Both the position numbers and the translations under genes were made by a program. DNA of 64,000 bases from Myxococcota bacterium. Lineage in GTDB: Bacteria; Myxococcota; JACRCW01. The stretch covers positions 1 through 64,000 of the forward strand of contig JBFMGU010000003.1 in NCBI GenBank assembly GCA_040752415.1, in the 5' to 3' direction. Below the pieces are notes generated by a model, which saw only the letters and a program-made list of their open reading frames with translations, was not told the DNA's origin and searched no databases. This document shows, one piece after another, positions 7,902 to 52,487 of the stretch (positions within the stretch are counted from its first letter, which is position 1; every line of letters starts with the position of its first letter).

Positions 7902-7922
7902 CCCCGGCAGAAGAGGCCAACC

Positions 7923-15700: not shown

Positions 15701-16524
15701 ACACCTGCAATGAGCTGCTCACGTACTACGACACCGACGTCATTCCCGCGTCCAACAAGCAGGCCTTCGCGGAGCTGGTGAAGGACATGGAGGAGGCGCG
15801 TCGACGTTCCGCGCACGAGCGGGCTCGGCGTTTCCGGTCCGCGCCGCGCAATCCCACGCCGGAGCGCGCGTTGCGGCACGTGCAGGAGCGCGCGGTGGAC
15901 CTCAGCCAGGCGCGACCGGAGCTGGGACACGCCACCAACGCCTGCGCCGTCGTGGGGCGGCGGTCCCTGACGCGCGGGGTGTTCCTGGATCGCCGCGCGT
16001 TCCTCATCTCCTACGACGCCACGCAGGACCCCACGGGGAGCATCCTGGAGCGCATCCTGATGGCGGTGGGGCCGGTGGGGGCGGGCATCAACCTGGAATA
16101 CTACTTCTCCACCGTCGACAACCTGCGCTTCGGCTGCGGCTCCAAGGTGGTGCACAACGTCAACGGGCTGCTCGGCGTGATGGACGGTCCGCGCAGCGAC
16201 CTGCGTACCGGGCTCCCCAAGCAGATGGTCGAGATCCACGAGCCCATGCGGCTGCAGATGATCGTCGAGGCCAGCACGGAAACCCTCGGCGCCATCTACG
16301 GACGACAGAAGCCGTTGCAGGAGCTCATTGGCAACGCGTGGGTGCACCTGGTGGCCGTGGACCCGCACAGCGGGGAGGCCTCGGTGTTCACGCCTGGCCG
16401 GGGATTCGTGCCCTGGACGCCGCCGGGGAGCGCGCTCCCAACGGTCAAGGCCTCGTCGGACTGGTACCGCGAAAAAGCGGATTTCATTCCTCCCGCGCTG
16501 ATCCAGGGGGACCGCCATGCTTGA
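12766..16524 (+). CDS. DUF2309/DabA-like protein (putative beta-CA-like CO2-hydrating subunit of a DAB-type complex), unusually long (1252 aa)
   Basis: N-terminal AAQGPIRTFVHHNTLHGLQH matches the conserved DabA/UPF0753 N-terminus. Internal FCIDDREESFRRH (CxDxR) and GHGSISVNNPHLSAYDCGACGGNHGGPNAR (His/Cys) resemble the Zn-ligand motifs reported for DabA. It starts 11 nt after the upstream ND4-like gene, and its 3' end overlaps the next gene by 8 nt. Confidence 0.8.
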   Translation: MSTHNHAHETPRDPRERLRHEVEHASHLLAAQGPIRTFVHHNTLHGLQHLHFDDAIREAERVLGGQGYLPVETFRRLHVEGRIPRDQLLRALEELSGLPLTEKPAANVTVRDVVMAHLLHGVDRASPSELAWEIEGRGALGRLRGDLPADVRAQLLRKAHDELERGVARIGVEWTISDWLGSITGLDVAGHVTRVAASGGDAGGAERALRELGIPVEKRAGYVELAQRRCPSGPDAWLHLEALTVSALAERHWSVEGNLPSLQRHFREHVEAYAAETLWRACLGIWALEDPTSPTDAALSPRDPHGGVAEQAWIHAEEMEAAGGPAVTLTSSQVATVQALLTRADEGDHARLCWTIQRELRAAELGRAGLEALRTLLSLHADEVAARLQEELRTQDPHARMLAHAHDVATSLMDGLAHGSTHRDVLLAVTGVDVNERVHPRMLELCSAFLDGGMATWRMPGRTLGLYDAWRNHASHVLDLGNPDDQELKSALAELPVLPVDAVLQSLRALGVEEEAWGGYLGRILLQLPGWGGMISWMERSGRRERSVDLVQFLAVRLFLERMEIARLARRTWHVEGTTEGLRQYFLTHPEEIVVRRELFSGSLPEHLAETARHLCHDENPRHRAGWTSLANLLWHHHEITGGISAHDHAWRLFHLSQLLGLGAEEVRALTRDDATALLRVLDGFPVEKHRRIWQAAYESTYRDQVLDALWQNRGRGRWKDRPTRPRAQIAFCIDDREESFRRHVEEIDPEYETLGVAGFFGVAVHYQGLDDEAASARCPLGVNPQHHVREVAQEDAGRQMARHRSESRWQQAVSDVLWELRRSLVGSYFLVDLVGAVSAVPLLGRVAFPGAFDDVANRVRSPMNTAVPTRLTVDAREVDGRRSGFTTAEQADRVEATLRNMGLTSGFGAVVLLFGHGSISVNNPHLSAYDCGACGGNHGGPNARLFAAMANAPEVRAVLATRGIVIPDDTWFVGAEHNTCNELLTYYDTDVIPASNKQAFAELVKDMEEARRRSAHERARRFRSAPRNPTPERALRHVQERAVDLSQARPELGHATNACAVVGRRSLTRGVFLDRRAFLISYDATQDPTGSILERILMAVGPVGAGINLEYYFSTVDNLRFGCGSKVVHNVNGLLGVMDGPRSDLRTGLPKQMVEIHEPMRLQMIVEASTETLGAIYGRQKPLQELIGNAWVHLVAVDPHSGEASVFTPGRGFVPWTPPGSALPTVKASSDWYREKADFIPPALIQGDRHA

Positions 16525-18553
16525 TGTCGTCATCCTGCTTGTTCCCGCGCTCCCGCTGCTGGCGGCCGCGTTGCTCGGCGTGTTGTGGGCGTCCGGTCGC
16601 ACGTTGGCGGAACGGACCGTCAGCCGGATGGTGTGTGGCGCCATCGGCCTCTCGCTCGTCGGGTCGGCGTTTGCGTTGACCCAGGTGCTCACGCTCCATC
16701 ACGGCGTGGAGGTGCGCGCGTGGCGCTGGCTGGAGAGTGGTCGCTTCACCGTGGACGTGGCGTTCCTCGTCGACCCGCTCTCGGGCGTCATGATGACGCT
16801 GGTTTCCCTGCTGTGCCTGGTGGCGTCGTGGTTTGCACGCAACTACATGCACGCGGAGGCGGGGTTCACGCGCTTCTTCGCCCTGGTGAGCCTGTTTGCC
16901 GGCGCCATGCTGGTGCTGGTGATGGCCAACAACTACGTCGTCATGTTCGCCGGGTGGGAGCTGGCGGGCATCTGCTCGTACCTGCTCATTGGCTACCAGC
17001 ATGAGCGCACCTCCGCGGTGCAGGGCGCCACGAGGGCATTCATCACCAAGCGCGTGGCGGAAGTGGCCCTGGTGTTGGGCATCCTGCTCGTGTTCGTGCA
17101 GTTCGGGACGGTGGACTACACGCGGGTGTTCGGTGCGGTGGGTGGATTGTCGACGGAGATGGCCAACGTCATGGCGCTCTGTCTGTTCCTGGGCGCCGCG
17201 GGGAAGGCCGCGCAGCTTCCGTTCGCCACGTGGTTGCCACGCGCCATGGAGGGGCCCACGCCGTCGAGCGCGCTCTTCTACGGCGGCACCATGGTCTCCG
17301 CGGGGGTGTACCTGGTGATCCGCAGCCAGCCCATCTTCAACGCCGCGCCCAACGTGCTGGTGATGGTGGCCATGGTGGGCGTGCTCACCGCCGTGTACGG
17401 CGCGCTCGTCGGGTGGGTGCAGACGGACGTGAAGAGCATCCTGGCGCATTCCGTCATGACGCAGCTGGGGCTCATGTTCCTGGCGTGCGGGCTGGGGGCG
17501 TACACCGCGGCGGTGCATCACCTGGTGGCCCACGCCGTCTTCAGCACGCTGCTCTTCCTGACCGCGCCCTCCATCCTCCTGCGCCTGCGCGACGCGAGCC
17601 CGCGTGAACACGGCGACCGCCACCAGATGACGACGCCACAGTGGCTCTTCATCCTCGGCGTGGCGGGCCTGATGGCCATGCCGTTCGTATCCGGCTGGTG
17701 GGAGACCGACGAGCGCGGCGCGGCATTCGAGGACGCCGGTCACGTGCTGCTGGCTTTTGGCGCGAAGGCGGCGTTCGGCACGGTGGTGCTCTCGTCGCGC
17801 GCGGTGCAACGCGCCTTCGGTGGTCCGCTGGGATCCTCGGTGCTGCGCGTCATGGTGATCAGTCTGGTCGCCGTGGGGCTCGCGGTGGCCGTGCAGCAGA
17901 CGGTGCTCGCCGGTGGGATCGACCAGGGCTGGTTCCAGCGTTTCATGGGCGGGCCGGATGTGAAGCACGGCGACGTGGCCCCGCTGCTGCTCCACGCCTT
18001 GATGCTGGTGCTGCTCGTGGCGCTTACCGTGGGCTGGCTCGGTGCGCTGTACTTTGACCGGCAGCAGCCCGAGGTCCACGGCGCGCTGATGGTCCGGTTG
18101 CGCACGTTGCACGCGGTCGCGTTGCGACGGTTCCATCTCGAGGATCTGCAGGAACGCTGGTTGGTGGCGCCGTTGCTGCGGCTGGGGCGCTGGCTGGACC
18201 GCGTGGATCGTCGGGTCATTGACCGCGCCATGGGGACGCCGGGGCCCGCGCAGCAGGTGCGCAGCGTGCTGGCGCAGTGGGAGGAGCACGTGGCCACCGG
18301 CGGTGCGGTGTCGTCGGAGGGACGGGGCCTGGGACCGGCGCGGGGGCTCATGGGGACGCTGGCGGAGGTTGCTGCGGCGTTCTCGTCGGCGTTGGAGCGC
18401 TACGTCATTGGAATGCTGGTGGGGCGGGGCGTGCCGCAGACCAGTGGCCTGCTGGGGCGGGCGCTCAACGGGCTGGAGCACGTGGTGGGCAAACCCGTGG
18501 TGCTGGGGGCCGTCGTGGCGGCTGGAGCCCTGATGCTGTTGGGGGTGCGTTGA
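16517..18553 (+). CDS. complex-I antiporter-like subunit, NuoL/ND5/MnhA family (DabB-like)
   Basis: 678 aa. ND5/NuoL-type motifs: FAGWELAGICSYLLIGY, AGKAAQLPFATWLPRAMEGPTPSSALFYGGTMVSAGVYLVIRS, SILAHSVMTQLGLMF. Long C-terminal extension typical of L-type subunits. Overlaps DabA-like stop. Confidence 0.8.
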   Translation: MLDVVILLVPALPLLAAALLGVLWASGRTLAERTVSRMVCGAIGLSLVGSAFALTQVLTLHHGVEVRAWRWLESGRFTVDVAFLVDPLSGVMMTLVSLLCLVASWFARNYMHAEAGFTRFFALVSLFAGAMLVLVMANNYVVMFAGWELAGICSYLLIGYQHERTSAVQGATRAFITKRVAEVALVLGILLVFVQFGTVDYTRVFGAVGGLSTEMANVMALCLFLGAAGKAAQLPFATWLPRAMEGPTPSSALFYGGTMVSAGVYLVIRSQPIFNAAPNVLVMVAMVGVLTAVYGALVGWVQTDVKSILAHSVMTQLGLMFLACGLGAYTAAVHHLVAHAVFSTLLFLTAPSILLRLRDASPREHGDRHQMTTPQWLFILGVAGLMAMPFVSGWWETDERGAAFEDAGHVLLAFGAKAAFGTVVLSSRAVQRAFGGPLGSSVLRVMVISLVAVGLAVAVQQTVLAGGIDQGWFQRFMGGPDVKHGDVAPLLLHALMLVLLVALTVGWLGALYFDRQQPEVHGALMVRLRTLHAVALRRFHLEDLQERWLVAPLLRLGRWLDRVDRRVIDRAMGTPGPAQQVRSVLAQWEEHVATGGAVSSEGRGLGPARGLMGTLAEVAAAFSSALERYVIGMLVGRGVPQTSGLLGRALNGLEHVVGKPVVLGAVVAAGALMLLGVR

Positions 18554-38904: not shown

Positions 38905-39453
38905 GTGGCGCGCGAGGCGTGGCAAGGTCGGGAGGAAGGGATGAACGCTGACCGGGATGAAGACTTCGAGGACGGCCCTGACGCGGATCGCGCGGCTGCG
39001 GGCTCGAGGACATTGAAATCCATCCGGCTGCCAACGCACCTGGTGCAGGCGGCGGAACGGCAGGCGAAGCACCTGGGGATCGGGTTTGGTGACGTCGTGG
39101 GGGATGCATTGGCGTCGTGGCTGGGCCACCCGCGAGAGCCCCGGACCATGTTGCTGGCCGAGCTTGCCTCATTGCTGCGGACCGCCTTCTACGACGAGTG
39201 TCCGCCCGACGTGGTGCGCCGCCTCTACCTGGAGATCCAGAACACGCCGCAGTTGTGGGATCTCTATACGGCGGCGATCTCGGAACGCGGGCGTCCCGAT
39301 GAGAAACGACGAGAGTCGCTGCACATCGCGATTGGGCGGATGGTGCCCAGGGTCCTCGAGGCCTTCCCGGATGGGCGCGTCGCCACGGCGGAGGAGACCG
39401 AGCTCATCCGAGGTTATCCCCTTCTGTTTCGCACCCGTGTCAACAAGGTGTAA
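38905..39453 (+). CDS. hypothetical protein
   Basis: 182 aa, acidic N-terminus. No family recognised. Its TAA stop lies inside the palindromic core of repeat copy C. Confidence 0.3.
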
Positions 39454-39600
39454 TACACCTCGAACACAACTTGACATGCCTGCCGGAGGGGGCCCCCCGC
39501 GCCCGCCGGCTCTTCCGCGCTCCCCGCGGACACGCCCTCCCAACCCAACCCACGCATTGCGCTGCGCCGACGTTGCACGGTCAAGCACCCAAGGGGACGT
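39441..39600 (+). repeat. dispersed repeat, copy C (core GGTGTAATACACC; CCCTCCCAACCCAACCCACGCATTGCGCTGCGCCG block)
   Basis: Shares the palindromic core, the TTGACATGCC segment, GGGGGCCCCCC, and the CCCTCCCAACCCAACCCACGCA..GCGCTGCGCCG block with copies A/B at 26.96-27.39 kb. Located in the 5' leader of the pyrC-pyrB fusion gene. Confidence 0.6.
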
Positions 39601-39692
39601 GGAAGTCGTCACGTACAGACTTCCGGACAAACGGAGTGGTCACAGCAGGCATTGTCGCGCGGAACATGATCCGGGTAACAAGCGCGCCGCCC

Positions 39693-41756
39693 ATGGCCAC
39701 CCTCCGACTCCCTGGACTGATCGATCCCCACGTTCATCTCCGTGATCCCGGCGCCACCCACAAGGAGGACTGGGACACCGGCACCGCGGCCGCGTTGGCA
39801 GGCGGATTCACGTGTGTGCTGGAGATGCCCAACACGACGCCACCCGTGACGGACGCGGCGTCGTTGTTGCTGAAGCAGCAGGCGGCGCGAGCGCGCGCGC
39901 GATGCGACTACGGCCTGTACCTCGGCGCCGGCGAGTCGAACGTCGACGACGCTGCGTCACTGGCACCGCAGGTTGCGGGGTTGAAGTGCTACATGGACAC
40001 CACGTTCGGTCCATTGAAGATCGACGGGTTGGCGGCGCTGATGGCACACGCGGCGCGCTGGCCGGCGGATCGTCCGCTGGCGTGTCACGCCGAGGGGCGC
40101 AACGTGGCGACGGCGATCCTGGTGGCGCACCTGACGGGTCGCGCGGTGCACATCTGTCACGTGGCGACGAAGGAGGAGATCGAGCTGATCCGTGCGGCCA
40201 AGAACAAGGGCCTGAAGGTGACGTGCGAGGTTGCGCCACATCACCTGTTCCTGACCGCTGACGACGTCAAGGGAATGGGTGGTCGCGGTACGGTGCGCAC
40301 GCCTCTGGCCACGGCGGCGGATCGCCAGGCGTTGCGCAACAACCTGGACATCGTCGATTGTTTCGCCACGGACCACGCGCCGCACACGCTCGAGGAGAAG
40401 GACTCCGAGAAGCCGCCGCCCGGATTCCCCGGTCTGGAGACGGCGCTGCCGCTGTACCTGGCGCTGGTGCGGGAGAAGGTGTTGACGCTGGAGGACCTGG
40501 TCCAGAAGTGCGTCGACAATCCGCGCCGGATCTTCAACATCCCCGCGCAGCCGGAGACGTGGGTGGAGGTGGATCCGGACTCGGAGTGGGAGGCGCGTGG
40601 CAAGGACATGTTCACGCGCGCCAAGTGGACGCCTTTCGAGGGATGGAAGATGCGTGGCCGCATCACGCGCGTGGTGCTGCGCGGCAAGACCGCCTTCCAC
40701 GACGGAAAAGTGCTGGCGCCGCCAGGCAGCGGGCTGGACCTGATCCGTGAGGGCATCCCGGCGCAGCCCACGGAGCAGCTCCAGCGCTCCACGCGGTTCA
40801 CCGCGCCGATGGCGTCGTCGCCAGGCGGCTCGCGGTTCCACAACCAGCACATCCTGTCCATCTCCCAGTTCACACGCTCCGACCTTCAGGACATCTGTGC
40901 CGTGGCCGAGCAGATGCGCACCATGGTGGAGCTGGTGGGCACGTTTGATCTGCTCAAGGGCAAGGTCCTGGCGTGTCTGTTCTACGCGCCGTCGACACGA
41001 ACGTCGTCGTCATTCATCGCGGCGATTGAGCGCCTGGGCGGCTCGGCCATTCCCATCAGCGGCGTGCAGTTCTCGTCGGTGGCCAAGGGAGAGTCGCTCC
41101 CGGACACGGTGCGCACGCTGGAAGCCTACGCCGACGTCATCGTCCTGCGACACTCCGAGACCGGCGCGGCGGCCACGGCGGCACGGTACGTCAAGAAGCC
41201 CATCATCAACGCAGGCGACGGCGTGGGCGAGCACCCAACGCAGGCATTGCTGGACCTGTTCACCATTCGCGAGGAGCTCGGCCGCGTCGACGGGCTCACG
41301 GTGACCATGCTGGGCGACCTGAAGTACGGCCGCACCGTGCATTCCCTGGCGCGCCTGCTCTCCCTCTACGACGTGAAGCTCAACTACGTCTCACCGGAAA
41401 TCCTGAAGATGCCGCCGTCCATCGTCGAGGAGCTGAAGGCGAAGGGCGTGCCGCAGCGGGAGTTCAACTCGCTGGACCCGGTGCTGGCGGAGACCGACGT
41501 GCTCTACGTGACGCGCGTCCAGAAGGAGCACTTCACGGACATGAAGGAGTACGAGTCCGTGCAGGGTTCGTACTCGATCACGTCGGAGACCATGCTGCGG
41601 GCCAAGCCGCGGATGGTGTTGATGCACCCGTTGCCGCGCGTGGGGGAAATCTCCATGGAAGTGGATAACGACCCGCGCGCTGCGTACTTCCGCCAGATGA
41701 ACTACGGCCTCTACGTCCGCATGGCGCTGCTGGCCATGGTGTTGGGGAAAGCATGA
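39693..41756 (+). CDS. pyrB: fused dihydroorotase-like / aspartate carbamoyltransferase (PyrC-PyrB single polypeptide)
   Basis: N-terminal [20 protein letters not shown]...DHAPH is the amidohydrolase/DHOase metal-binding signature. From about residue 380 the sequence reads as ATCase: [12 protein letters not shown] (STRTR carbamoyl-P site), [15 protein letters not shown] (HPTQ), [15 protein letters not shown]. No stop between the two halves. The listed ORF from 39471 has a non-homologous 5' extension; an alternative start is MIRV at 39666. Confidence 0.75.
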
Positions 41757-43129
41757 GCTTCTTTGGTCTGCTGGAGGAGCGGGCACGCAAGACGTCGTCG
41801 CTGCTGTGTGTGGGACTGGATCCCGCGACGGAAAACGTGGATGGCATCCGCGACGCCTGCTTCCGCATCATCGACGCCACGGCGGAGCATGCCTGCGCGT
41901 TCAAGCCGAACAGTGCGTTCTTCGAGGCGCACGGCGCGAAGGGATGGGCGGCGCTCAAGGAGGTGATTGCGCACGTTCCCCAGGGCATTCCCGTCATTCT
42001 CGACGTCAAACGCGGTGATATCGGCGACACCAACGACGCCTACGCGCGCGCGTGCTTCGACGAGCTGGGCGCTCACGCCATCACCGCGAGCCCGTATCTC
42101 GGCGGGGAAGCGCTTTCACCGCTGCTCAAGCGTTCGGACCGCGGCGTGTTCCTGCTGTGTCGCACGTCGAACCCGGGCGCGGAGGAGCTGCAAGGGCTCA
42201 CCGTCGGTGGGCAGGCGCTGTTCGAGGTGGTGGCGGGGAAGGCGCAGCAGTGGAACCGCAACGGGAACGTGGGCCTCGTCGCGGGCGCGACGGATCCGGA
42301 TGCGCTGGCGCGCGTGCGAGCCGCGGCGCCCGACCTGTGGCTGCTGGTTCCCGGCGTGGGAGCACAGGGCGGTGACCTGGAGGCGTCGGTGCGCGCGGGC
42401 CTGCGTGGCGACGGGCTGGGCATGCTCATCAACGTGTCCCGCGGCATCTCCCGGGCGCAGGACCCCGGCGCGGAGGCGCGCAAGCTCAAGGAGTCCATTC
42501 GCGCTGCCGCCGAGAAGCGCGGTGTGACGACGAGGGCCAAGCACCCCGGTCTCGCGCAGGCGCTGGCGCAGGCGGGTTGTGTGCGCTTCGGAAAGTTCAC
42601 GCTGAAGTCGGGGAAGAGCTCGCCCATCTACATGGACCTGCGACAGCTCGTGAGCTTCCCCGTCGTGCTGCGTCGGGCGGCGCAGGCGTACGCGGGCATC
42701 CTGGCCACGCTGAAGTTTGATCGCGTCGCCGGCATTCCCTACGCCGCGCTGCCCATCGCCACCGCGATTGGTCTCGAGACGGGGCTGCCGGTCATCTATC
42801 CCCGTCGCGAGGTGAAGGAGTACGGGACCAAGGCCGCCATCGAGGGCGTGTTCAAGCCAGGTGAAACCGCAGTCATGATCGACGACCTGGCCACGACGGG
42901 CGACACCAAGATCGAAGCGATCAAGAAGCTGGAGGAGCAGGACCTCGTCGTGAAGGACATTGTGGTGCTGATCGAGCGAGGGCAGGGCGCCACCGAGATG
43001 CTGGCCAAGGCCGGTTACCGCATGCACGCCGTCATCACACTGCGCGAGATCCTCGAGGACCTCCGTCAGACCAACGCCATCACCGTCGAGCAATACCGCG
43101 AGGTCATGGACTTCCTCGCCGCTGGCTGA
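41753..43129 (+). CDS. pyrF: fused orotidine-5'-phosphate decarboxylase / orotate phosphoribosyltransferase (PyrF-PyrE)
   Basis: The N-terminal half is type-2 OMP decarboxylase ([24 protein letters not shown]). The C-terminal half is OPRTase ([32 protein letters not shown] as the PRPP-binding motif). Contiguous 458-aa ORF, ATGA-coupled to the upstream gene. Confidence 0.8.
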
Positions 43130-44208
43130 TGTACCCGCTGATCAAGCCCCTGCTGTTCCGGATGGACCCGGAGCGCGCGCATGAGCGCACCGTGGCCGCC
43201 CTGCAGCGAGTCGGCCATTCCGCCGCGGCGTTGGCCGCCATGCGGGCCATGTATGTCGTCGAGGATCCGCGGTTGCGCGTGAGCGTGGCGGGCCTGGAGA
43301 TGCGCAACCCGGTGGGCCTTGCCGCGGGCTACGACAAGAACGGCGTGGCGGTTCCCGCGTTGGCTGCGTTGGGCTTCGGTCACGTCGAGGTGGGGACGGT
43401 CACGCGCGTGGGGCAGCCCGGCAATCCGCGGCCGCGTGTGCACCGCATCCCGGAAGCGCGCGCAGTGATCAACGCCATGGGCTTTCCCAACGGCGGCGCC
43501 GACGTGATGCACGTGCAGAAGGTCCCCGGCGTACCGGTGGGCATCAACGTGGGGAAGAACAAGGACACGCCGCTGGAGCACGCCGCGGAGGAGTACAGCG
43601 GGCTGTTGCAGAAGGTGCATCCGCAGGCGGATTACCTCGTCGTCAACGTGAGCAGTCCCAACACGCCCGGGCTGCGGCAGCTGCAGACGCGCGCGTTTGT
43701 CGAGGGGTTGGTGCAATCGGTGACGACGGCGGTGAAGTCGCTGACGCCGAAGAAGCCGCTGTTCATCAAGATCTCGCCGGACATGGAAGACGCGGACCTC
43801 GATCACCTGCTGGAGACACTGCTCGCCCACGGGGTTGACGGCGTCATTGCCACCAACACCACGCTCTCCCGCGCGGGTGTCACCGGGTTTGACGACGTGG
43901 CCGGCGGTCTGAGCGGCGCACCGCTGCGAGCGCGCTCCACGGCGGTGATCCGGCGCGTGTATGAGCGGACGCAGGGGCGGTTGCCGATCATCGGCGTGGG
44001 CGGGATCGCCAGCGCGGAGGATGCGCTCGAGAAGCTGCGGGCAGGCGCGTCGGTGGTGCAGGTGTACACGGGTCTTGTCTACGAGGGGCCGGGCCTGGTG
44101 CGACGGATCCTGGAGGGCCTGATCCGCGCATGTGAACGGGAAGCGGTGGCGGATCTCCCGGCGCTGGTCGCGCGCATCCGGTCCGCGCCGCAGGCCCCAA
44201 GCGGTTGA
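43129..44208 (+). CDS. pyrD: dihydroorotate dehydrogenase (quinone), class 2
   Basis: [19 protein letters not shown] is the class-2 N-terminal helix. GLAAGYDKNG, NAMGFPNGG, NVSSPNTPGLRQLQ motifs. 359 aa. Confidence 0.85.
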   Translation: MYPLIKPLLFRMDPERAHERTVAALQRVGHSAAALAAMRAMYVVEDPRLRVSVAGLEMRNPVGLAAGYDKNGVAVPALAALGFGHVEVGTVTRVGQPGNPRPRVHRIPEARAVINAMGFPNGGADVMHVQKVPGVPVGINVGKNKDTPLEHAAEEYSGLLQKVHPQADYLVVNVSSPNTPGLRQLQTRAFVEGLVQSVTTAVKSLTPKKPLFIKISPDMEDADLDHLLETLLAHGVDGVIATNTTLSRAGVTGFDDVAGGLSGAPLRARSTAVIRRVYERTQGRLPIIGVGGIASAEDALEKLRAGASVVQVYTGLVYEGPGLVRRILEGLIRACEREAVADLPALVARIRSAPQAPSG

Positions 44209-44340: not shown

Positions 44341-47208
44341 ATGGTCGCTCCCACGTCGCCGGTTCACTGTCTCGTCGTCACGTTCCACCGCGCCGAGGAC
44401 CCGCGCGCCCACGGGCTGCTCTCCAGCGCACATGCCCTGGGCTTCACCGGGATCACGCAGGTGGAATGCGCGGATCTCTACTTCCTCGAGGGAGCGCTCA
44501 CGTCGCAGGACCAGCAACGCCTGGCGCGCGAGCTGCTCAGTGATCCCGTGGCGCAGCGTGCGGAGTGGCGCATGGGCAAGGCGGCTGCGTCGGGAGCGGG
44601 GGTCCACCTCGTGGAAACCGCGTTGCGCCCCGGCGTCACCGACCCCGTGGCGGAGCAGATCATCCGCAGCTCGCGCATGCTGGGCATTGCCAGCGTGACC
44701 GCCGCGTCGACGGGACAGCGCTTCGTCCTGCGCGGCGCCATCGACGAGAAGCAGCTCCAGCGCCTGACCCGCGCGCTCCTTGCCAACCCGGTCATCCAGC
44801 GGTGGTCGTTCGGTGAGATCGACCCCGTGTTCCCGCATCCCGCCGAGGCTTCGGGGAAGGTGGAGACCATCCCGGTGCGGGAGCTGAGTGACGACGGACT
44901 GCTGGCCCTCAGCAAGCAGCGTCGTGCCGCGTTGGACCTCGCGGAGATGAAGGCGATCCAGGGCTTCTATCGCAGCGTGGGACGCGACCCCACCGACGTG
45001 GAGCTGGAAACGATCGCGCAGACCTGGAGCGAGCACTGCGTGCACAAGACCTTCCGCGCACGCATCAGCGTGACCGGTCCCGACGGTGCGTCGTCGGAAG
45101 TGGATGGCCTGCTCCGCACGTTCATCCGCGCGCCCACCGAGAAGATCGCCGCGCCGTGGGTGCGCTCCGCCTTCGTCGACAACGCCGGCATCATCGACTT
45201 TGACGACGAGAACGAGGTCTCCTTCAAGGTGGAGACGCACAACCATCCCTCGGCCATTGAGCCCTTTGGTGGCGCCAACACCGGCGTGGGCGGCGTGATC
45301 CGCGACGTGCTCGGTGTCTCCGCCAAGCCCATCGCCGCCACCGACGTGTTGTGCTTCGGCCCGCAGGAGACGCCGCCGCAGGGCCTGCCCGAGGGCGTGC
45401 TGCACCCGCGACGCATCCAGTCCGGCGTCGTCGCGGGCGTGCAGGACTACGGCAACAAGATCGGTATTCCCACCGTCAACGGCGCCATCCTGTACGACGA
45501 GGGCTACACCTCCAACCCACTCGTCTATTGCGGCTGCGTGGGCATTGCGCCCAAGGGCAGTCACCCGCGTCAGCCCCAGAAGGGCGACCGCGTGATCGTC
45601 CTCGGCGGACGCACCGGGCGCGACGGACTCCGCGGCGCCACGTTCTCGTCGATGACCATGGACGCGCAGACGGGTGAGGTGGCCGGCGCGTCGGTGCAGA
45701 TCGGTGATCCCATCGTCGAGAAGGGGCTCATCGAGGTCTGCACGCGTGCGCGGGACCGCAAGCTCTACCACGCCATCACGGACTGCGGCGCCGGTGGTTT
45801 GTCCTCCGCCGTCGGGGAGATGGCCGCCGGAGTAGGCGCCGACGTCGAGCTCTTCAAGGTGCGGCTGAAGTATCCCGGCCTGGCGCCCTGGGAGATCTGG
45901 CTCAGTGAGGCGCAGGAGCGCATGGTGCTCGCGGTGCCGGACGTGGCCCCGCTGCAGGCGCTGTGTGACCTGTATGACGTCGAGCTCACCGACATCGGCG
46001 CGTTCACCGGCGACGGAAAGCTGGTGGTGCGCTACCAGGGCCGCCCCGTCCTGGATCTGCCCACGGACTTCATGCATGACGGCATTCCTCGTCGTCATCT
46101 GAAGGCGGAGATCGTGACGCCGGTGCGTTCGGCCGCTCCCGCGCCGCGCGTTGACGACGTGGGGCGCACCACGCTGAAGTTGCTGGCGCATCCCAACATC
46201 GCGTCCAAGGCGCCCGTCATCCGCATCTATGACCACGAGGTGCAGGGCGGTACCGTCGTGAAGCCGCTGACCGGCGCGGTCAATGACGGCCCCTCCGACG
46301 CGTGCGTGCTGAAGCCCATGGGCACCAAGGGGCTGCGCGGCATCGTGCTCTCCAACGGCGTCAATCCCCAGTTCGGCAAGCGCGACGCGTACCGGATGGC
46401 GCTCAGTGTCGTCGACGAGGCGCTGCGCAACGCTGTGGCGGTGGGTGCGGATCCCACGCGCGTCGCCATCCTGGACAACTTCTGCTGGGGCGACCCGCTG
46501 CGGCCGCAGACACTTGGCGCGCTCGTCGAGGCGGCGCGGGGTTGTCGGGATGCGGCGCTGCACTTCGGAACGCCGTTCATCAGCGGCAAGGACTCGCTCA
46601 ACAACGAGTACCTGGGCGCCGACGGACAGCGTCATGCCATCCCGCCCACGCTCCTCATCAGCGCCATGGGGGTCATCGACGACGTCACCCAGGCCGTCAC
46701 CATGGATCTCAAGGAAGCCGGCAACGTCGTGTATCTCCTGGGGGAGACGCGCGCGGAGCTCGGCGGTTCCCACCTGGGTCTCGTGCTCGGACGCGACATC
46801 GGCGGCGTGGTGCCCGACCAGGTGGAGTTCGCGCCCGCGTTGTTCAAGGCCCTGCACGTCGCCATCCGCGCCGGTGTGGTGCGGGCGTGCCACGACCTCA
46901 GCGAGGGTGGTCTCGCCGTGGCGGCGGCGGAGATGGCCATCGCCGGTCGACTGGGGCTGGAGCTCACGCTGGACGTCGACGACGTGGTGACCGCGCTGTT
47001 CAGCGAGTCCAATGCGCGCTTCCTCGTCGAGGTGCGCAGCAAGGACACCGCCGCGTTCGAGTCCCACCTTGCGGCGCTTGGTCCACGTCGTTACACGCGG
47101 CTCGGCTCCGTCGTCGCCACGCCGGCGCTAAGCATCAAGAACCGCACCGAAACCCTTTGCGCGCTGCCGGTCCAGGAGCTGGTGGCTGCGTGGAACACCC
47201 TTCCGTGA
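44341..47208 (+). CDS. purL: phosphoribosylformylglycinamidine synthase, small-type PurL fused to two N-terminal PurS-like domains (PurS-PurS-PurL)
   Basis: Residues ~1-200 contain two PurS-like units (..LRPGVTDPVAEQIIRSSRMLGIASV..FVLRG..). The PurL body follows (TWSEHCVHKTF, ETHNHPSAIEPFGGANTGVGGVIRD, GDPIVEKG). 955 aa, versus ~740 aa for stand-alone small PurL. Confidence 0.85.
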   Translation: MVAPTSPVHCLVVTFHRAEDPRAHGLLSSAHALGFTGITQVECADLYFLEGALTSQDQQRLARELLSDPVAQRAEWRMGKAAASGAGVHLVETALRPGVTDPVAEQIIRSSRMLGIASVTAASTGQRFVLRGAIDEKQLQRLTRALLANPVIQRWSFGEIDPVFPHPAEASGKVETIPVRELSDDGLLALSKQRRAALDLAEMKAIQGFYRSVGRDPTDVELETIAQTWSEHCVHKTFRARISVTGPDGASSEVDGLLRTFIRAPTEKIAAPWVRSAFVDNAGIIDFDDENEVSFKVETHNHPSAIEPFGGANTGVGGVIRDVLGVSAKPIAATDVLCFGPQETPPQGLPEGVLHPRRIQSGVVAGVQDYGNKIGIPTVNGAILYDEGYTSNPLVYCGCVGIAPKGSHPRQPQKGDRVIVLGGRTGRDGLRGATFSSMTMDAQTGEVAGASVQIGDPIVEKGLIEVCTRARDRKLYHAITDCGAGGLSSAVGEMAAGVGADVELFKVRLKYPGLAPWEIWLSEAQERMVLAVPDVAPLQALCDLYDVELTDIGAFTGDGKLVVRYQGRPVLDLPTDFMHDGIPRRHLKAEIVTPVRSAAPAPRVDDVGRTTLKLLAHPNIASKAPVIRIYDHEVQGGTVVKPLTGAVNDGPSDACVLKPMGTKGLRGIVLSNGVNPQFGKRDAYRMALSVVDEALRNAVAVGADPTRVAILDNFCWGDPLRPQTLGALVEAARGCRDAALHFGTPFISGKDSLNNEYLGADGQRHAIPPTLLISAMGVIDDVTQAVTMDLKEAGNVVYLLGETRAELGGSHLGLVLGRDIGGVVPDQVEFAPALFKALHVAIRAGVVRACHDLSEGGLAVAAAEMAIAGRLGLELTLDVDDVVTALFSESNARFLVEVRSKDTAAFESHLAALGPRRYTRLGSVVATPALSIKNRTETLCALPVQELVAAWNTLP

Positions 47209-47219
47209 GGAATCCCGTC

Positions 47220-47969
47220 ATGGCGCCCCGTGTCCTCATCCTCCACGCCACCGGCACCAACCGGGACCACGACGCAGCCGCGGCCTTCCAGCTCGCCGGC
47301 GCGGAGCCGGAGATTGTTCCGCTCCAGGAGCTGCGTGAACGTCGTCGGAAGTGGCAGGACTACCAGATCCTCGTTGTGCCCGGCGGGTTCAGCTACGCGG
47401 ATGCGCTGGGCGCGGGGAAGCTGTTCGCGCTGGACCTGCAGAGCTACTTCGTCGACGAGGTGAAGGCGTTCGTGCAGAGCGGCCGTCCCGTCATCGGCAT
47501 CTGCAACGGTTTCCAGGCGCTGGTGAAGTCCGGCCTGCTCCCCGCGCTCGACGGAGCCGAGGCCACGCTGACCTTCAACGCGTCGGGCCACTTCGAGTGT
47601 CGCTGGGTGACGCTGCGCCCGGTCTCCCGCGTCTGCCTCTGGACGCGCGACCTCACCGACGAGATCTACTGCCCCGTCGCGCACGGTGAGGGCCGGTTCC
47701 TCGTGGCGTCGGACAGCGCGCTCTCCCAGCTCAAGCAGCGCGACCAGGTGGCGCTCACCTACGTGGGCAACGGCTACCCCGACAATCCCAATGGCTCGCC
47801 GGGTGACGTCGCGGGCGTGTGCAATCCGCAGGGGAACGTGCTCGGGCTGATGCCGCACCCGGAGGATCACATCCAGCCGTTCCAGCATCCGCGCTGGACG
47901 CGGGGTGAGCGCGGCAAGCTGGGGCTCAAGCTGTTGGAAGCCGGCGTGCGCCACGCCGCGGCGATGTGA
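47220..47969 (+). CDS. purQ: phosphoribosylformylglycinamidine synthase glutamine-amidotransferase subunit
   Basis: MAPRVLILHATGTNRDHD..VVPGGFSYAD..GICNGFQAL.. (catalytic Cys)...HPE is a class-I GATase triad. The start is inside the listed over-long ORF 46302..47969. Confidence 0.85.
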   Translation: MAPRVLILHATGTNRDHDAAAAFQLAGAEPEIVPLQELRERRRKWQDYQILVVPGGFSYADALGAGKLFALDLQSYFVDEVKAFVQSGRPVIGICNGFQALVKSGLLPALDGAEATLTFNASGHFECRWVTLRPVSRVCLWTRDLTDEIYCPVAHGEGRFLVASDSALSQLKQRDQVALTYVGNGYPDNPNGSPGDVAGVCNPQGNVLGLMPHPEDHIQPFQHPRWTRGERGKLGLKLLEAGVRHAAAM

Positions 47970-48955
47970 CGGAGGTGATGAAGGTGGACCGGCAGCTCAT
48001 CGTCGACGCGTTCAAGGCGCCCTTTGACGGGACGCAGCTCCCGTTGCCCGGCAAGAAGACTGGCAAGGTGCGCGACTGGTACCCGCTCCCCGACGGGCGC
48101 CGCCTCCTCATCACCACCGAGCGGCTCAGCGCGTTTGATCGCATCCTCGGCTGCGTCCCGTACAAGGGCCAGGTGCTCAACGAGCTCAGCGCGTGGTGGT
48201 TCGAGCAGACGCGCGACATCATCCCCAACCACGTCGTCAGCGTCCCGGATCCCAACGCGCTCATTGCGCGCGAGGCGCAGGCGTTCCCGGTGGAAGTGGT
48301 GGTGCGCGGCTTCATCAGCGGTGTGACGTCGACGTCGCTGTGGACGCGCTACGCCAAGGGTGAGCGCAACATCTACGGCTACACGTTCCCCGACGGGCTC
48401 AAGAAGAACCAGGCGCTCCCGCAGCCCATCATCACGCCCACCACCAAGGCCCAGGACGGCGCCCACGACGAGCCGGTGACCTGCGCGGAGGTGGTCCAGC
48501 GTGGTCTCCTCGACACGCGCACGTGGGACGCGGTGCAGTCCGCCGCCATTGCGGTGTTCAAGCGCGGTCAGGAGCTGGCGCGGAAGGCGGGGCTGGTCCT
48601 CGTCGACACCAAGTACGAGCTGGGCCGCGCCCCCGACGGGACCATCCTGCTCATCGACGAGGTCCACACGCCGGACAGCTCGCGGTTCTGGAAGGCGGAC
48701 ACGTACGAGGCGCGCGTGGCGGCGGGCGAGGAGCCGGACAACTTCGACAAGGAGTTCATCCGCCTGGCCTACGCAGCCAAGGGCTACCGTGGCGACGGAG
48801 AGCCGCCCGTGATGCCCGACGACCTGTGGATCTCCGTCGCCGAGCGTTACATCACGATTTTCGAGAAGCTGACGGGTCGCACGTTCATCCCGGCGTCGCG
48901 CCCGGTTGGGCCGCGGCTGGAGCAGAACCTCCGACGTGCGGGAGTGATGTCATGA
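47966..48955 (+). CDS. purC: phosphoribosylaminoimidazole-succinocarboxamide synthase
   Basis: Long-form SAICAR synthetase: GKVRDWY, ITTERLSAFDRILG. 329 aa. Overlaps purQ and purF start/stops. Confidence 0.85.
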   Translation: MTEVMKVDRQLIVDAFKAPFDGTQLPLPGKKTGKVRDWYPLPDGRRLLITTERLSAFDRILGCVPYKGQVLNELSAWWFEQTRDIIPNHVVSVPDPNALIAREAQAFPVEVVVRGFISGVTSTSLWTRYAKGERNIYGYTFPDGLKKNQALPQPIITPTTKAQDGAHDEPVTCAEVVQRGLLDTRTWDAVQSAAIAVFKRGQELARKAGLVLVDTKYELGRAPDGTILLIDEVHTPDSSRFWKADTYEARVAAGEEPDNFDKEFIRLAYAAKGYRGDGEPPVMPDDLWISVAERYITIFEKLTGRTFIPASRPVGPRLEQNLRRAGVMS

Positions 48956-50382
48956 GCGCGCTGCCCATCCTCTCCACCGACGACCGTCCGCACGAGGAGT
49001 GCGGCATCATCGCCATCTCCGCTCCCGACGAGGACGCCGCGCGCATGGCGTTCTTCGGCCTGTTCGCGCTGCAGCACCGCGGGCAGGAGGCGGCGGGCAT
49101 TGCCGTTTCCGACGGGTCCACCGCGCGCCTGCACAAGGACGTGGGCCTGGTCACCCACGTGTTCCACCCGCAGGACCTCAAGAACCTGCACGGACACGTC
49201 GCCATCGGGCACACGCGGTATTCCACCACCGGTTCCTCGTCGGTGCGCAACGCGCAGCCGTTCCTCATCGAGACGCAGTGGGGCTCGCTGGGCGTGGCGC
49301 ACAACGGCAACCTGGTGAACGCGGGGCAGCTACGGCGGGAGGTGCTGGAGCGCGGCGTGGGGCTCTCGTCGTCGTCGGACAGCGAGGTCATGACCATGAT
49401 GCTCGCGGGCGCCGCCGGGCACACCTGGGAGGAGCGCATCCAGAGCGCCATGGCGCGTTGGCGCGGTGCGTACAGCCTGGTGATCCTGGCGCGCGACTCC
49501 GTCTACGCCGTGCGCGACCCGTGGGGCTTCCGCCCGCTCTGCGTGGGTCGGCTGTCGGGGGGCGGGCACGCCGTGGCGTCGGAAACGTGTGCGCTGCGCA
49601 CGCTGGGCTGTGAGTCCATCCGTGAGGTGGCGCCCGGCGAGATCGTGCACATTCGTGGGAAGGATCTGAAGAGCCACCAGGCCATGCCGGCCATGCCGCA
49701 GACCGCGCTCTGCACGTTCGAGCACATCTACTTCTCGCGCCCGGACAGCGAGCTCGACGGACTCTCCATCCACCAGGTCCGCCAGCGTCTGGGCGAGGAG
49801 CTCGCGCGGGAAGCGGGAGTGCCTGCTGACGTCGTGGTGCCGGTGCCGGACAGCTCGGTTCCCGCCGCGGTGGGCTACGCGCGCGCTTCCGGCATCCCGT
49901 ACAACGACGGGCTCATCAAGAACCGCTACATTGGTCGCACCTTCATCGAGCCCACGGACTCGCTGCGCAAGCAGGGCGTGGCCATGAAGTTCAACGCACT
50001 GGAAGCCAACCTGCGCGGCAAGCGCACCGTCCTCATCGACGACAGCATCGTGCGCGGCAACACCTCCGGTCCGCTGGTGAAGCTGCTCCGCGACGCTGGC
50101 GCCACCGAGGTTCACCTCCGCATCACCTGCCCGCCCATTGCGCACCCCTGTTACATGGGCGTGGACATGGGCACCTACGACGAGCTGCTCGCGCACCGCC
50201 TCTCGCTCGAGCAGATGCGCGCGCACATCGGCTGCGACAGCCTGCGCTTCCTTTCCGTCGAGGGAATGATGCGCGCCATTGGTCGGAGCAGCGGCTACTG
50301 CAACGCGTGCTTCACGGGGAAGTATCCCATTGATGTTCCCGCTGGTGCGGCCAAGACGGGTTTCGAGAAGGCCATTGGATGA
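48952..50382 (+). CDS. purF: amidophosphoribosyltransferase
   Basis: MSALPILSTDDRPHEECGIIAI is the N-terminal nucleophile Cys after Met. HTRYSTTGSS and VLIDDSIVRGNTS (PRTase motif). The start is inside the listed ORF 48523.. and overlaps the purC stop (ATGA). Confidence 0.9.
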   Translation: MSALPILSTDDRPHEECGIIAISAPDEDAARMAFFGLFALQHRGQEAAGIAVSDGSTARLHKDVGLVTHVFHPQDLKNLHGHVAIGHTRYSTTGSSSVRNAQPFLIETQWGSLGVAHNGNLVNAGQLRREVLERGVGLSSSSDSEVMTMMLAGAAGHTWEERIQSAMARWRGAYSLVILARDSVYAVRDPWGFRPLCVGRLSGGGHAVASETCALRTLGCESIREVAPGEIVHIRGKDLKSHQAMPAMPQTALCTFEHIYFSRPDSELDGLSIHQVRQRLGEELAREAGVPADVVVPVPDSSVPAAVGYARASGIPYNDGLIKNRYIGRTFIEPTDSLRKQGVAMKFNALEANLRGKRTVLIDDSIVRGNTSGPLVKLLRDAGATEVHLRITCPPIAHPCYMGVDMGTYDELLAHRLSLEQMRAHIGCDSLRFLSVEGMMRAIGRSSGYCNACFTGKYPIDVPAGAAKTGFEKAIG

Positions 50383-52487
50383 GCACGAAGCGTCTGGTCG
50401 TGCTGGTGTCCGGGAATGGCAGCAACCTGCAGGCCATCCTGGACGCGTGCGCGTCGGGGGCGTTGAACGCGCAGGTGTGCGCGGTGGTGTCCAACAAGCC
50501 GGATGCGTTCGGGCTTGAGCGTGCTCGTCGGGCTGGGGTTCCCGCGGTCAGCAGGAAGAAGGACCCGCAGCAGGATCGCAGCGCGTACGACGCGGAGCTG
50601 GCGAGTCTCGTCGAGGAATACGCCCCCGACTACGTGGTGCTGGCGGGATGGATGCGCATCCTGGGCATGCCGTTCCTCGGTCGGTTTCCCAATCGCGTCA
50701 TCAACCTGCATCCCGCGCTGCCCGGTGCGTTCGCGGGCACGCATGCGATTGAGCGCGCCTTCGACGCATTCAAGCGCGGCGAGGTCACGCACACCGGCGT
50801 CATGGTCCACCTTGTCCCCGACGAGCGCGTGGACCTGGGCCCGGTGCTGGCGCAGGTCAACGTGCCCATCCACACCACCGATACGTTGGACGTGCTGGAA
50901 GCGCGCATGCACGCCGCCGAGCACGTGTTGCTGGTGGATGCACTGAAGCAGCTCTGCAACCAACCTCATTCCTCGACGGAGAAAGCCATGAAGCGGGCCA
51001 TTCTTTCGGTGCACGACAAGACAGGCGTGGTGGAGTTTGCGCGCGGGCTGCATGAGCTGGGGTGGACGCTGATTGCGTCGGGTGGGACGGCCAAGCTGCT
51101 GACGCAGAGCGGGCTGCCGGTGAAGGAGGTGTCCGACTACACGGGCTCGCCGGAGATGCTGGGCGGGCGGGTGAAGACGCTGCACCCGGCCATCCACGGC
51201 GGCTTGCTGGCCCGTCCCACTCCCGCCGACGAGGGCGACCTCAAGAAGCAGGGTTATGGCTACATCGACCTCGTGGCGGTCACCCTCTATCCGTTCGAGC
51301 AGACCATCGCGAAGCCCAACGTGACGATGGAAGAGGTCATCGAGAACATCGACATCGGCGGAGTGACGCTCATTCGCGCTGCCGCCAAGAACCACGAGCG
51401 CGTGACGCTGGTCTGCGACCCGCGCGACTACAATGCGGTGCTCAGCGAGCTGCGGACGGGTGCGGTGTCGTCGGAAACGCGCAAGCGCCTGGCCATCAAG
51501 GGCTTTGCCTCCACCGCGCACTACGACGCCACCATCGCCGGCTACCTCAACCCGGAGGGCGGTCATCACGTGCAGGCGTACACGGTGCAGAAGCTCCGTT
51601 ACGGCGAGAATCCGCACCAGGCCGCCACGCTCTACTCCTTGCAGCCGGGCGGTGGTCCGCTGGGTGGTCGTATCCTGCAGGGCAAGGAGCTCTCCTACAA
51701 CAACCTGCTGGACCTCGACGCTGCGTGGCGCGCCGCGGTTTCGTTTGAGCGGCCCAGCGTCGCCATCGTGAAGCATCTCTCTCCGTGCGGCGTGGCCAGC
51801 GGCGACGATCTCACGACGGCATTCAAGGCCGCGTTGGCCTCGGATCCCATCTCCGCGTTCGGCGGTGTCATTGCGAGCAACAAGCCCTTCGACGCGAAGA
51901 CGGCGGAGACGCTGGGTGATCTCTTCGTGGAGTGCATCGCCGCGCCCGGTTTCACCGACGACGCCAAGGCGTTGCTGGCCAAGCGCAAGCAGTGTCGCCT
52001 GCTGGAGATGCCGGACACGTCGGTGGAGCCGCGCCACGAGCTGCGTTCGGTGACGCGCGGTCTGCTGAAGCAGGACGTGGACTTTGGTGACCCGTCGGAT
52101 GCGCAGTGGAAGGTGGTGAGCAAGCGTGAGCCCACGGCGGCGGAGTGGACGGCGTTGAAGTTTGCGTGGAAGGTGTGCGCGCACGTGAAGAGCAACGCGA
52201 TTGTGTTCGCGCAGGGTGAAGCCACGGTGGGCATTGGTGGCGGTCAGCCGAATCGTGTGGACTGCGTGCGCATTGCGTCGGAGCGGGCGGGCGAGAAGTC
52301 CAAGGGTGCCGCCATGGCGTCGGACGCATTCTTCCCGTTCCCGGACTCCGTTCAGGTGGCGGCCAAAGCCGGCATCACCGCGGTCATCCACCCCGGTGGC
52401 TCCATCCGTGACAAGGAATCCATCGCCGCCGCCGACGAGGCGAACATGGCCATGGTCGTCACCGGCGTGCGCCACTTCCGCCACTGA
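50379..52487 (+). CDS. purH: fused phosphoribosylglycinamide formyltransferase / AICAR transformylase-IMP cyclohydrolase (PurN-PurH single polypeptide)
   Basis: Residues 1-200 are PurN ([29 protein letters not shown]). From ...[23 protein letters not shown] onward it is PurH (MGS-like IMPCH domain, then AICARFT domain with GVASGDDL and [10 protein letters not shown]). No intervening stop. 702 aa. Confidence 0.85.

Follow-up and report, generated by a model that had tools for sequence, protein, structure and literature searches.

What does a bacterium gain when dihydroorotase (DHOase) runs without a stop into aspartate carbamoyltransferase (ATCase): a bifunctional enzyme resembling the core of eukaryotic CAD, or an ATCase with a purely structural DHOase half? 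The question is raised by a fused pyrC–pyrB gene in a 64,000-nucleotide stretch of DNA (positions 1 to 64,000 of contig JBFMGU010000003.1; hereafter the window) from a metagenome-assembled genome (MAG) of a Myxococcota bacterium. The first-pass annotation of this DNA had described an in-frame fusion of about 690 amino acids in the domain order of CAD, and both points held up. The single open frame at 39471..41756 on the + strand is stop-free from the ATG at 39693 to the terminator at 41754–41756, which gives 687 amino acids carrying three Pfam domains in one chain, DHO before ATC: Amidohydro_1 (aa 6–283), OTCace_N (385–527) and OTCace (533–682). Among NCBIfam models, TIGR00670 (aspartate carbamoyltransferase) scored 358 bits against a cutoff of 237, and TIGR00857 (dihydroorotase ‘multi’ subfamily) scored 288 bits against 279. 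The NCBI gene model has the same coordinates, and its product (P0001, ‘MAG: aspartate carbamoyltransferase [Myxococcota bacterium]’) is identical to the 687-residue sequence and is deposited on a 94-kb contig. The 222 nt of open frame upstream of position 39693 have a G/C content at third codon positions (GC3) of 0.73, compared with 0.88 in the gene, and are probably untranslated. An AlphaFold2 (AF2) model of the protein has two folded domains and a mean predicted local distance difference test score (pLDDT) of 86.9. We consider it highly probable that the gene encodes a bifunctional CAD-type DHOase–ATCase, produced by lineage-specific fusion of the split pyrC and pyrB found in related bacteria.

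We found that the nearest solved structures to both halves are the human CAD domains and not bacterial PyrC or PyrB. The DHOase half matched human CAD DHOase with 433 bits over one co-linear stretch (aa 4–350) at 54% identity. The ‘human CAD’ class of long DHOases is marked by short N-terminal and long C-terminal extensions and by the lack of a large β-sandwich domain. The best non-CAD DHOase, the type I enzyme of Aquifex (3D6N), reached 181 bits in a match broken into two stretches; Bacillus and Staphylococcus type I enzymes gave about 175–179 bits, the archaeal enzyme of M. jannaschii 148 and type III enzymes 142. Foldseek aligned the AF2 DHOase domain to human CAD DHOase (4C6x/6HFx) with a template modelling (TM) score of 0.95 and a root-mean-square deviation of 1.2–1.3 Å over about 352 columns. 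The ATCase half scored 150 bits with PF02729 and 108 bits with PF00185, matched human CAD ATCase (5G1N) with 381 bits at 57.6% identity, ahead of Chaetomium CAD (341 bits) and Pyrococcus abyssi (338 bits), and gave a TM score of 0.97 to the human domain. Its motifs are STRT (434–437), KGES (465–468), RH (486–487), HPTQ (514–517), GRTVHS (546–551), RVQKE (608–612) and HPLPR (645–649). HPTQ had been named in the first-pass annotation; the STRTR reported there is in fact STRTS, the carbamoyl-phosphate motif as in CAD. The carbamoyl-phosphate and aspartate motifs at aa 434, 465, 486, 514, 608 and 645 are invariant in 74–77 of 77 members of the bacterial clade described below, and the ion pairs of the ATCase trimer in human CAD (roles as given in bioRxiv 10.1101/2024.07.30.605799) are conserved (R447–D481 and D471–R649). 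As judged from sequence, both halves are of the eukaryotic CAD subtype, which goes beyond a generic pyrC–pyrB fusion.

When each GTDB species was represented by one genome, 181 genomes encoded a relative, of which 80 were retrieved, and a metagenome scan added 80 loci. The retrieved genomes were almost all Chloroflexota of the class Anaerolineae (Anaerolineales and Thermoflexales, with the labels Anaerolinea, Leptolinea and Brevefilum); a few bins were labelled delta-proteobacteria or Desulfobacteraceae. At every locus with both genes, pyrC and pyrB were neighbouring but separate and in the same order (79/79 in genomes and 76/76 in bacterial metagenome loci; 130 non-redundant). The operon of the clade is pyrC, pyrB, pyrF–pyrE and pyrD. 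The DHOase gene of these relatives stops 1–17 codons past the position of residue 350 of the fused protein, and the ATCase starts about 25 codons before the core. The spacer has a median of about 44 nt, by rough estimate, and in some relatives the two genes are in the same frame. The closest relative (L001; 72% identity in DHO, 75% in ATC, 72% GC) is syntenic, with the order pyrC, pyrB, pyrF–pyrE, pyrD, purL, and at its junction pyrC ends in a stop codon and is separated by 69 nt of spacer from pyrB, which is preceded by AAGGAG. Because all related loci are split, and L001 has this stop, spacer and AAGGAG, the fused state is taken as derived and lineage-specific. In four Chloroflexota loci (L072, L075, L079 and L082), 1.0–1.5 kb of extra sequence lies between the CAD-type pyrC and pyrB, and in three loci (L034, L050 and L056) no pyrB match adjoins pyrC, so the pair is sometimes non-contiguous.

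The Anaerolineae split pairs (L001, L003, L058 labelled Anaerolinea thermophila) share with the fused gene the same operon and the same clade in the trees of both domains, at 55–72% identity in DHO and 68–80% in ATC. They differ in having a pyrC stop of their own, a spacer, a pyrB start and an N-terminal ATCase motif, all missing from the fused gene. On this evidence the fused gene is a divergent, fused member of an Anaerolineae-type clade. The first-pass annotation had called such a fusion uncommon in bacteria, and among about 150 related bacterial loci it is the sole fused case. No other close fused relative appeared in a word-indexed search of 5.8 billion protein clusters, nor any other fused protein of the clade in an exhaustive HMMER search of 1.84 billion representatives. 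A literature search returned no paper describing a DHOase or ATCase of CAD type in bacteria, nor any describing a bacterial DHO–ATC fusion, which is not proof of novelty.

Four apparent further fusions were rejected. Matches of about 800 aa in Logan are terminal exons of animal CAD, and the only metagenome match scored as fused (L130) proved to be a complete CAD without introns, longer than 2044 aa and with eukaryote-level identity. P0109 (658 aa) resembles the fused protein in having two domains, DHO–ATC, and no carbamoyl phosphate synthetase (CPSase), but it is 45–48% identical, branches outside the bacterial clade and lies on a protist or giant-virus contig (L083; Logan SRR30207599, 45% GC). 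This contig, with P0109 and a eukaryote-type eIF2γ bearing an eIF2β-like C-terminal domain at 6974–8977 and 52–2037, also encodes a class I (Trp/Tyr) aminoacyl-tRNA synthetase and orphan genes, and probably comes from a giant virus or a protist. P0137 is a 2113-aa, intronless full CAD (L085, 3108–9449; JGI 3300017989, 17 kb, 46% GC) beside a ubiquitin-conjugating E2 and a CCCH zinc-finger protein, with FolD, a formyltransferase and many orphan genes as further neighbours. It has 14 near-identical copies on metagenome contigs of up to 115 kb, and L085 looks like a giant virus or compact protist genome.

If the relatives are all split, is the junction of the fused gene genuine? The interval at 40.75–40.85 kb that the first-pass annotation wished to see verified corresponds to the 30-codon linker, which holds no hidden stop as far as the consensus sequence shows. 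By alignment, the linker matches the stretch that in the split relatives comprises the end of the DHOase, the spacer between the genes and the N terminus of the ATCase. Its residues 355–378 have an AF2 pLDDT below 50, and it is predicted from the model to be a flexible or disordered tether, as in CAD. The distance between conserved anchors on either side is 96 nt in the fused gene, compared with a minimum of 80 and a median of 137 at split loci. A deletion was considered as a required origin of the fusion and set aside, as 96 nt lies inside the range of split loci and no deletion is needed.

A further difference from the split relatives is the loss of a motif. All 152 split ATCases examined (N termini of L003–L082 and L086–L165; in L001, for example, at 5069–5146) carry ΦPΦG[DE], always with its first residue 12 positions ahead of the ATC core. 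The stricter form [HY][LM]P[FL]G[DE] is matched by 149 of them, and the other three are near-variants. The motif is absent from the fused protein, in which the adjoining ATC core is 75–80% identical to that of the relatives. It is also absent from the 113 long, mostly eukaryotic CAD-type proteins (0/113) and from other stand-alone ATCases. When a split-type ATCase (P0129) was modelled with AF2, confidence was low over its first 20 residues, motif included, in a region of shallow alignment, which is weakly compatible with a free docking peptide.

These observations bear on the possibility that the fusion is an assembly or sequencing artefact, in which a consensus error removed a stop or restored the frame of genes that are split in the real genome. 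Such an error would fit the uniformly split state of about 150 related loci and the lack of another close fused relative in either large search; since the two genes share a frame in some split relatives, one stop-codon change could fuse them, and the evidence is a consensus sequence. However, a point error in a stop codon would spare the N-terminal motif of the ATCase and the ribosome-binding site, and both are missing beside a core that is still well conserved. Over the former tail and spacer (codons 353–372), the third position is G or C in 20/20 codons, whereas the real spacer of L001 has 59% GC and no periodicity, and both other frames carry stop codons through the junction. We therefore judge an artefact unlikely, because a stop-to-sense error would not account for the loss of the motif and the ribosome-binding site. 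The junction of the fused gene appears from its sequence to have been remodelled over evolutionary time, more than simply read through.

The linker also contains an in-frame ATG (M373), which may be what is left of the start of pyrB and raises the alternative that the fusion is only partly penetrant and that a separate ATCase starting at M373 is made alongside the full-length protein. Its position, 10 codons before the ATC core and about where pyrB of the relatives starts, would suit this alternative. Nevertheless, the 20 nt before this ATG, unlike the corresponding stretch in L001, hold nothing that resembles an AGGAG ribosome-binding site, we found no sigma-70-like promoter in the region, and a product starting there would lack the N-terminal motif borne by every stand-alone ATCase of the clade. 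Two products are thus quite improbable, and a single fused polypeptide is preferred.

Is the DHOase half of this polypeptide catalytic? The first-pass annotation had left this open while pointing to a retained HxH metal site, which is confirmed by the alignment of H13 and H15 with human H1471 and H1473. The Zn-ligand positions are H13, H15, K98 (the carboxylated Lys), H132, C155/H156 and D227; R17, N47 and H231 correspond to substrate binders, and T104 and F105 to the flexible loop. In the human enzyme, H13, H15, K98, H132, H156, D227, T104 and F105 align with H1471, H1473, K1556, H1590, H1614, D1686, T1562 and F1563, respectively. All 14 human functional residues compared are identical (H1471, H1473, R1475, N1505, K1556, T1562, F1563, H1590, C1613, H1614, E1637, H1642, D1686 and H1690), after a check in which all 14 letters agreed with the human sequence. 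Work by Grande-Garcia and colleagues in 2014 reportedly assigned C1613, E1637 and H1642 to an extra (third) Zn site of human DHOase, the counterparts of which are C155, E179 and H184. The Cys of this site is Ala in 49 of 80 bacterial clade sequences, so the site is not universal within the clade. Clade-wide conservation extends to the Zn ligands, the carboxylated Lys and catalytic Asp, the Thr and Phe of the loop, and the Arg, Asn and His that bind substrate. Type I DHOases have Asp in place of the carboxylated Lys, a short catalytic loop and a large adjacent β-sandwich domain (PMC9771888); by contrast, the fused protein has K98 and a long loop with T104 and F105.

Every metal ligand and catalytic residue is thus present, including the carboxylated Lys and the Asp that the first-pass annotation had singled out for alignment, and because of this we expect the DHOase half to be an active enzyme rather than a PyrC′ scaffold. 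The contrary proposal is that it is a non-catalytic scaffold, like PyrC′ or the DHO domain of fungal CAD, with an active DHOase encoded elsewhere. ATCases that have an inactive, DHOase-like partner are well documented (PMC7053772; also fungal CAD, 5NNL), and with 64 kb of the genome visible a second pyrC could lie elsewhere. Against this stand the conservation of all Zn ligands and of the catalytic and substrate residues across the clade, a score of 433 bits to the active human DHOase compared with 141 to the inactive Chaetomium domain (5NNL), and the absence of another DHOase from an operon whose genes otherwise cover pathway steps 2 to 6. We regard a scaffold as very unlikely and infer from the conserved residues that both enzymatic activities are real.

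To place the gene relative to eukaryotic CAD, we built neighbour-joining trees with 200 bootstraps for each domain separately. In both trees, the smallest clade with all the bacterial loci includes the fused gene and no eukaryote; its bootstrap support is 200/200 for ATC and 46/200 for DHO. The CADs of animals, fungi and Amoebozoa branch near this clade. Short DHOases of the CAD subtype that are more divergent were seen in Chloroflexota outside the clade and in Patescibacteria (Curtissbacteria and Levybacteria), and cluster look-up named some of the tree neighbours, a minority, as fungi, Rigifila, Curtissbacteria, Levybacteria and one member of the Chloroflexota. That a piece of eukaryotic CAD was recently acquired, or entered as contamination, is extremely improbable: besides the self-match all full-length top protein matches are eukaryotic CADs, at about 50% identity, but the gene clusters with bacterial loci, some 150 of them at 55–80% identity, and not with eukaryotes (fully supported in ATC), lies in a coupled bacterial operon of host-like composition (68% GC, GC3 0.87) between purM and purL with a myxobacterial-type UvrC nearby, and has neither a CPSase part nor introns.

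Neighbour-joining did not recover how the bacterial clade, the DHOases of Patescibacteria type and the groups of eukaryotic CAD branched relative to one another, and the intended outgroups fell inside the ingroup; for these reasons we claim no direction of transfer. We tentatively suggest, as a possibility that we would not favour outright, that the DHO–ATC module of CAD and the pyrC–pyrB pair of Chloroflexota and Patescibacteria type, whose genes are already arranged as in CAD, share a specific common origin, most likely through an ancient bacterium-to-eukaryote transfer followed by fusion, that the myxobacterial gene is an independent, recent replay of that fusion, and that ΦPΦG[DE] is a non-covalent tether, dispensable once the domains are fused. 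Such dispensability would explain why neither this fusion nor any of the long CAD-type proteins examined has the motif.

The fused protein can be compared with three better-known arrangements. With the C-terminal half of eukaryotic CAD (GLN–CPS–DHO–ATC, in animals and Amoebozoa) it shares the domain order on one chain, the catalytic residues including the counterparts of C1613, E1637 and H1642, the ion pairs of the ATC trimer, a disordered linker and predicted folds with TM scores of 0.95–0.97. It differs in lacking the glutaminase and CPSase domains, in lying in a bacterial operon and in having a linker of 30 aa compared with 96 aa; nothing similar to the long regulatory linker of eukaryotes was seen in it. 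The Aquifex aeolicus dodecamer (3D6N) likewise unites DHOase and ATCase in one particle of ATC trimers and DHO dimers (PMC8442968), but non-covalently and with a type I DHOase of about 422 aa that has a large adjacent domain. In the class A ATCase of Pseudomonas, the ATCase also has a partner with the DHOase fold; this PyrC′ is catalytically dead and a separate chain, whereas the DHOase half of the fused protein keeps every catalytic residue.

We propose the following mechanism. The ATCase half would condense carbamoyl phosphate and aspartate (step 2 of de novo pyrimidine synthesis), the Zn-dependent DHOase half would cyclise carbamoyl aspartate to dihydroorotate (step 3), and PyrD, followed by PyrF–PyrE, would convert dihydroorotate to uridine monophosphate (UMP). 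Carbamoyl phosphate would come from a separate CPSase: carAB, pyrI and pyrR were all absent from the 64-kb window, and the 28 larger open reading frames (ORFs) scanned in it contained no CPSase domain. In the split relatives, the N-terminal peptide of the ATCase may tether it to DHOase non-covalently. In the myxobacterial lineage, the pyrC stop and spacer would have been lost or remodelled into a flexible 30-residue tether, and covalent fusion would replace the contact made by the peptide, which would then be dispensable. By analogy with the current model of the CAD core, a hexamer of ATC trimers and DHO dimers (bioRxiv 10.1101/2024.07.30.605799; PMC8442968), ATC trimers bridged by DHO dimers may form a hexamer.

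Several points weigh against a bifunctional, CAD-like fusion. The fusion is a singleton, known from the consensus of one metagenome-assembled contig, and a consensus error is formally possible. The argument from third positions is moderate only: although the binomial P for 20/20 G/C is about 4e-4 (GC3 of the gene 0.88, overall GC 0.68), 3.5% of 60-nt stretches in unannotated parts reach 20/20, compared with 8.4% of in-frame coding ones, and some of those stretches probably belong to genes that were missed in annotation. An ATG persists within the gene, at M373, and might allow separate translation of the ATCase. The DHO dimer interface is largely conserved: of its residues, with roles taken from bioRxiv 10.1101/2024.07.30.605799, W123 is kept and human M1601 is replaced by L143, but S1538 differs, being replaced by G80. 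With a linker of 30 aa, as against 96 aa in human CAD, a CAD-like hexamer is a conjecture. Finally, in a genome of which 64 kb are visible, a second pyrB or pyrC, pyrI or carAB could lie elsewhere. With these points weighed, we conclude from its sequence that the gene is a genuine, lineage-specific CAD-type DHOase–ATCase fusion in a myxobacterial MAG, a reading that rests on a single MAG.

The fused gene lies in a nucleotide-biosynthesis cluster rich in gene fusions, in the order purM, pyrC–pyrB, pyrF–pyrE, pyrD, purS–purL, purQ, purC, purF and purN–purH (Table 1). Its stop overlaps the start of pyrF–pyrE (ATGA), through which the two genes are probably translationally coupled, and pyrD in turn overlaps the stop of pyrF–pyrE by 1 nt. 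The best structural match of PyrD is E. coli 1F76 (289 bits). A fused pyrF–pyrE also follows pyrB in 87 related loci. The product matches PDB 3QW4 (‘UMP synthase’) over its full length with 549 bits, and its domain order is the reverse of that in animal UMPS. We take 3QW4 to be the OMPDC–OPRT enzyme of Leishmania; the clade may thus hold close prokaryotic relatives of the kinetoplastid OMPDC–OPRT fusion. Directly upstream of the pyr operon, a 182-aa ORF (38905–39453, +) had no Pfam match. We found no Rfam family in the window and no sigma-70-like promoter across 38.7–44.5 kb, where terminator-like sites were no commoner than expected by chance.

Table 1. Features of the fused gene and of the surrounding nucleotide-biosynthesis cluster (coordinates in the window)
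Feature	Coordinates	Strand	Basis
Fused pyrC–pyrB: DHOase–linker–ATCase, 687 aa + stop	39693..41756	+	ORF, Pfam, deposited protein, AF2
CAD-type dihydroorotase domain, aa 1–352	39693..40748	+	Similarity, residue alignment, Foldseek
Inter-domain linker, aa 353–382 (30 aa)	40749..40838	+	Gene ends of relatives, codon positions, AF2
Internal in-frame ATG (M373), 10 codons ahead of ATC core	40809..40811	+	Sequence
CAD-type aspartate transcarbamoylase catalytic domain, aa 383–687	40839..41753	+	Similarity, motifs, Foldseek
pyrF–pyrE fusion (orotidine monophosphate (OMP) decarboxylase, then orotate phosphoribosyltransferase)	41753..43129	+	Pfam OMPdecase; TIGR02127 and TIGR00336 above cutoff
pyrD, quinone-dependent class 2 dihydroorotate dehydrogenase	43129..44208	+	NF003652 440 bits, TIGR01036 394 bits
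purS–purL fusion (PurS + FGAR-AT linker + AIRS/AIRS_C, 955 aa)	44341–47208	+	
purQ	47205–47966		
purC	47966–48955		
purF	48958–50382		
purN–purH fusion (Formyl_trans_N + MGS + AICARFT/IMPCHase, 702 aa)	50379–52487	+	

The composition of the pyr operon (68% GC, GC3 0.87) equals that of its flanks, which argues that the contig is not chimeric. The best named relatives of the UvrC encoded nearby are from Myxococcota (Anaeromyxobacter, Cystobacter and Myxococcus, about 50% identity). Two further homologues (P0322 and P0323) are 63–67% identical, one of them labelled Myxococcota_JACRCW01, and in their genomes no pyr operon was found within 10 kb of uvrC. By its UvrC, the host appears to be a deep myxobacterial lineage. 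The pyr operon sequences nest among those of Chloroflexota, and this suggests an old inter-phylum transfer of the operon from Chloroflexota-like bacteria, with a composition that has since become host-like. Elsewhere in the window, a DabA homologue (12766–16524, +) is unusually long, with 1252 aa against a Pfam profile of 747 positions (844 bits); it is flanked by Mrp/Nuo-type proton-antiporter subunits (11145–12755 and 16517–18553), forming a DAB-type inorganic-carbon transporter locus.

Why the CAD enzymes are fused, and how DHO and ATC build a hexamer, are still being asked, and the structure of full CAD is unsolved, partly owing to the instability of human CAD (PMC8442968; bioRxiv 10.1101/2024.07.30.605799). 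The covalent link between DHO and ATC is viewed as necessary for assembly (PMC9771888). In the bacterial clade, enzymes with about 55% identity to the human domains exist in two states, split in many taxa, including loci labelled Anaerolinea thermophila and Thermoflexales, and fused in this gene. This natural comparison would make the necessity of the link, any benefit of channelling and the role of the lost peptide testable with tractable prokaryotic proteins. According to the textbook view, the first three steps are carried out in bacteria by three separate proteins (PMC7052976), a statement that the fused gene qualifies. The DHOase classification, in the part summarised in PMC9771888, has no bacterial CAD-type group; relative to that summary, prokaryotic DHOases closely related to the CAD subtype are new. 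The interest of the locus lies less in the fusion itself than in a large split bacterial clade of homologues of the human CAD core, with one fused member.

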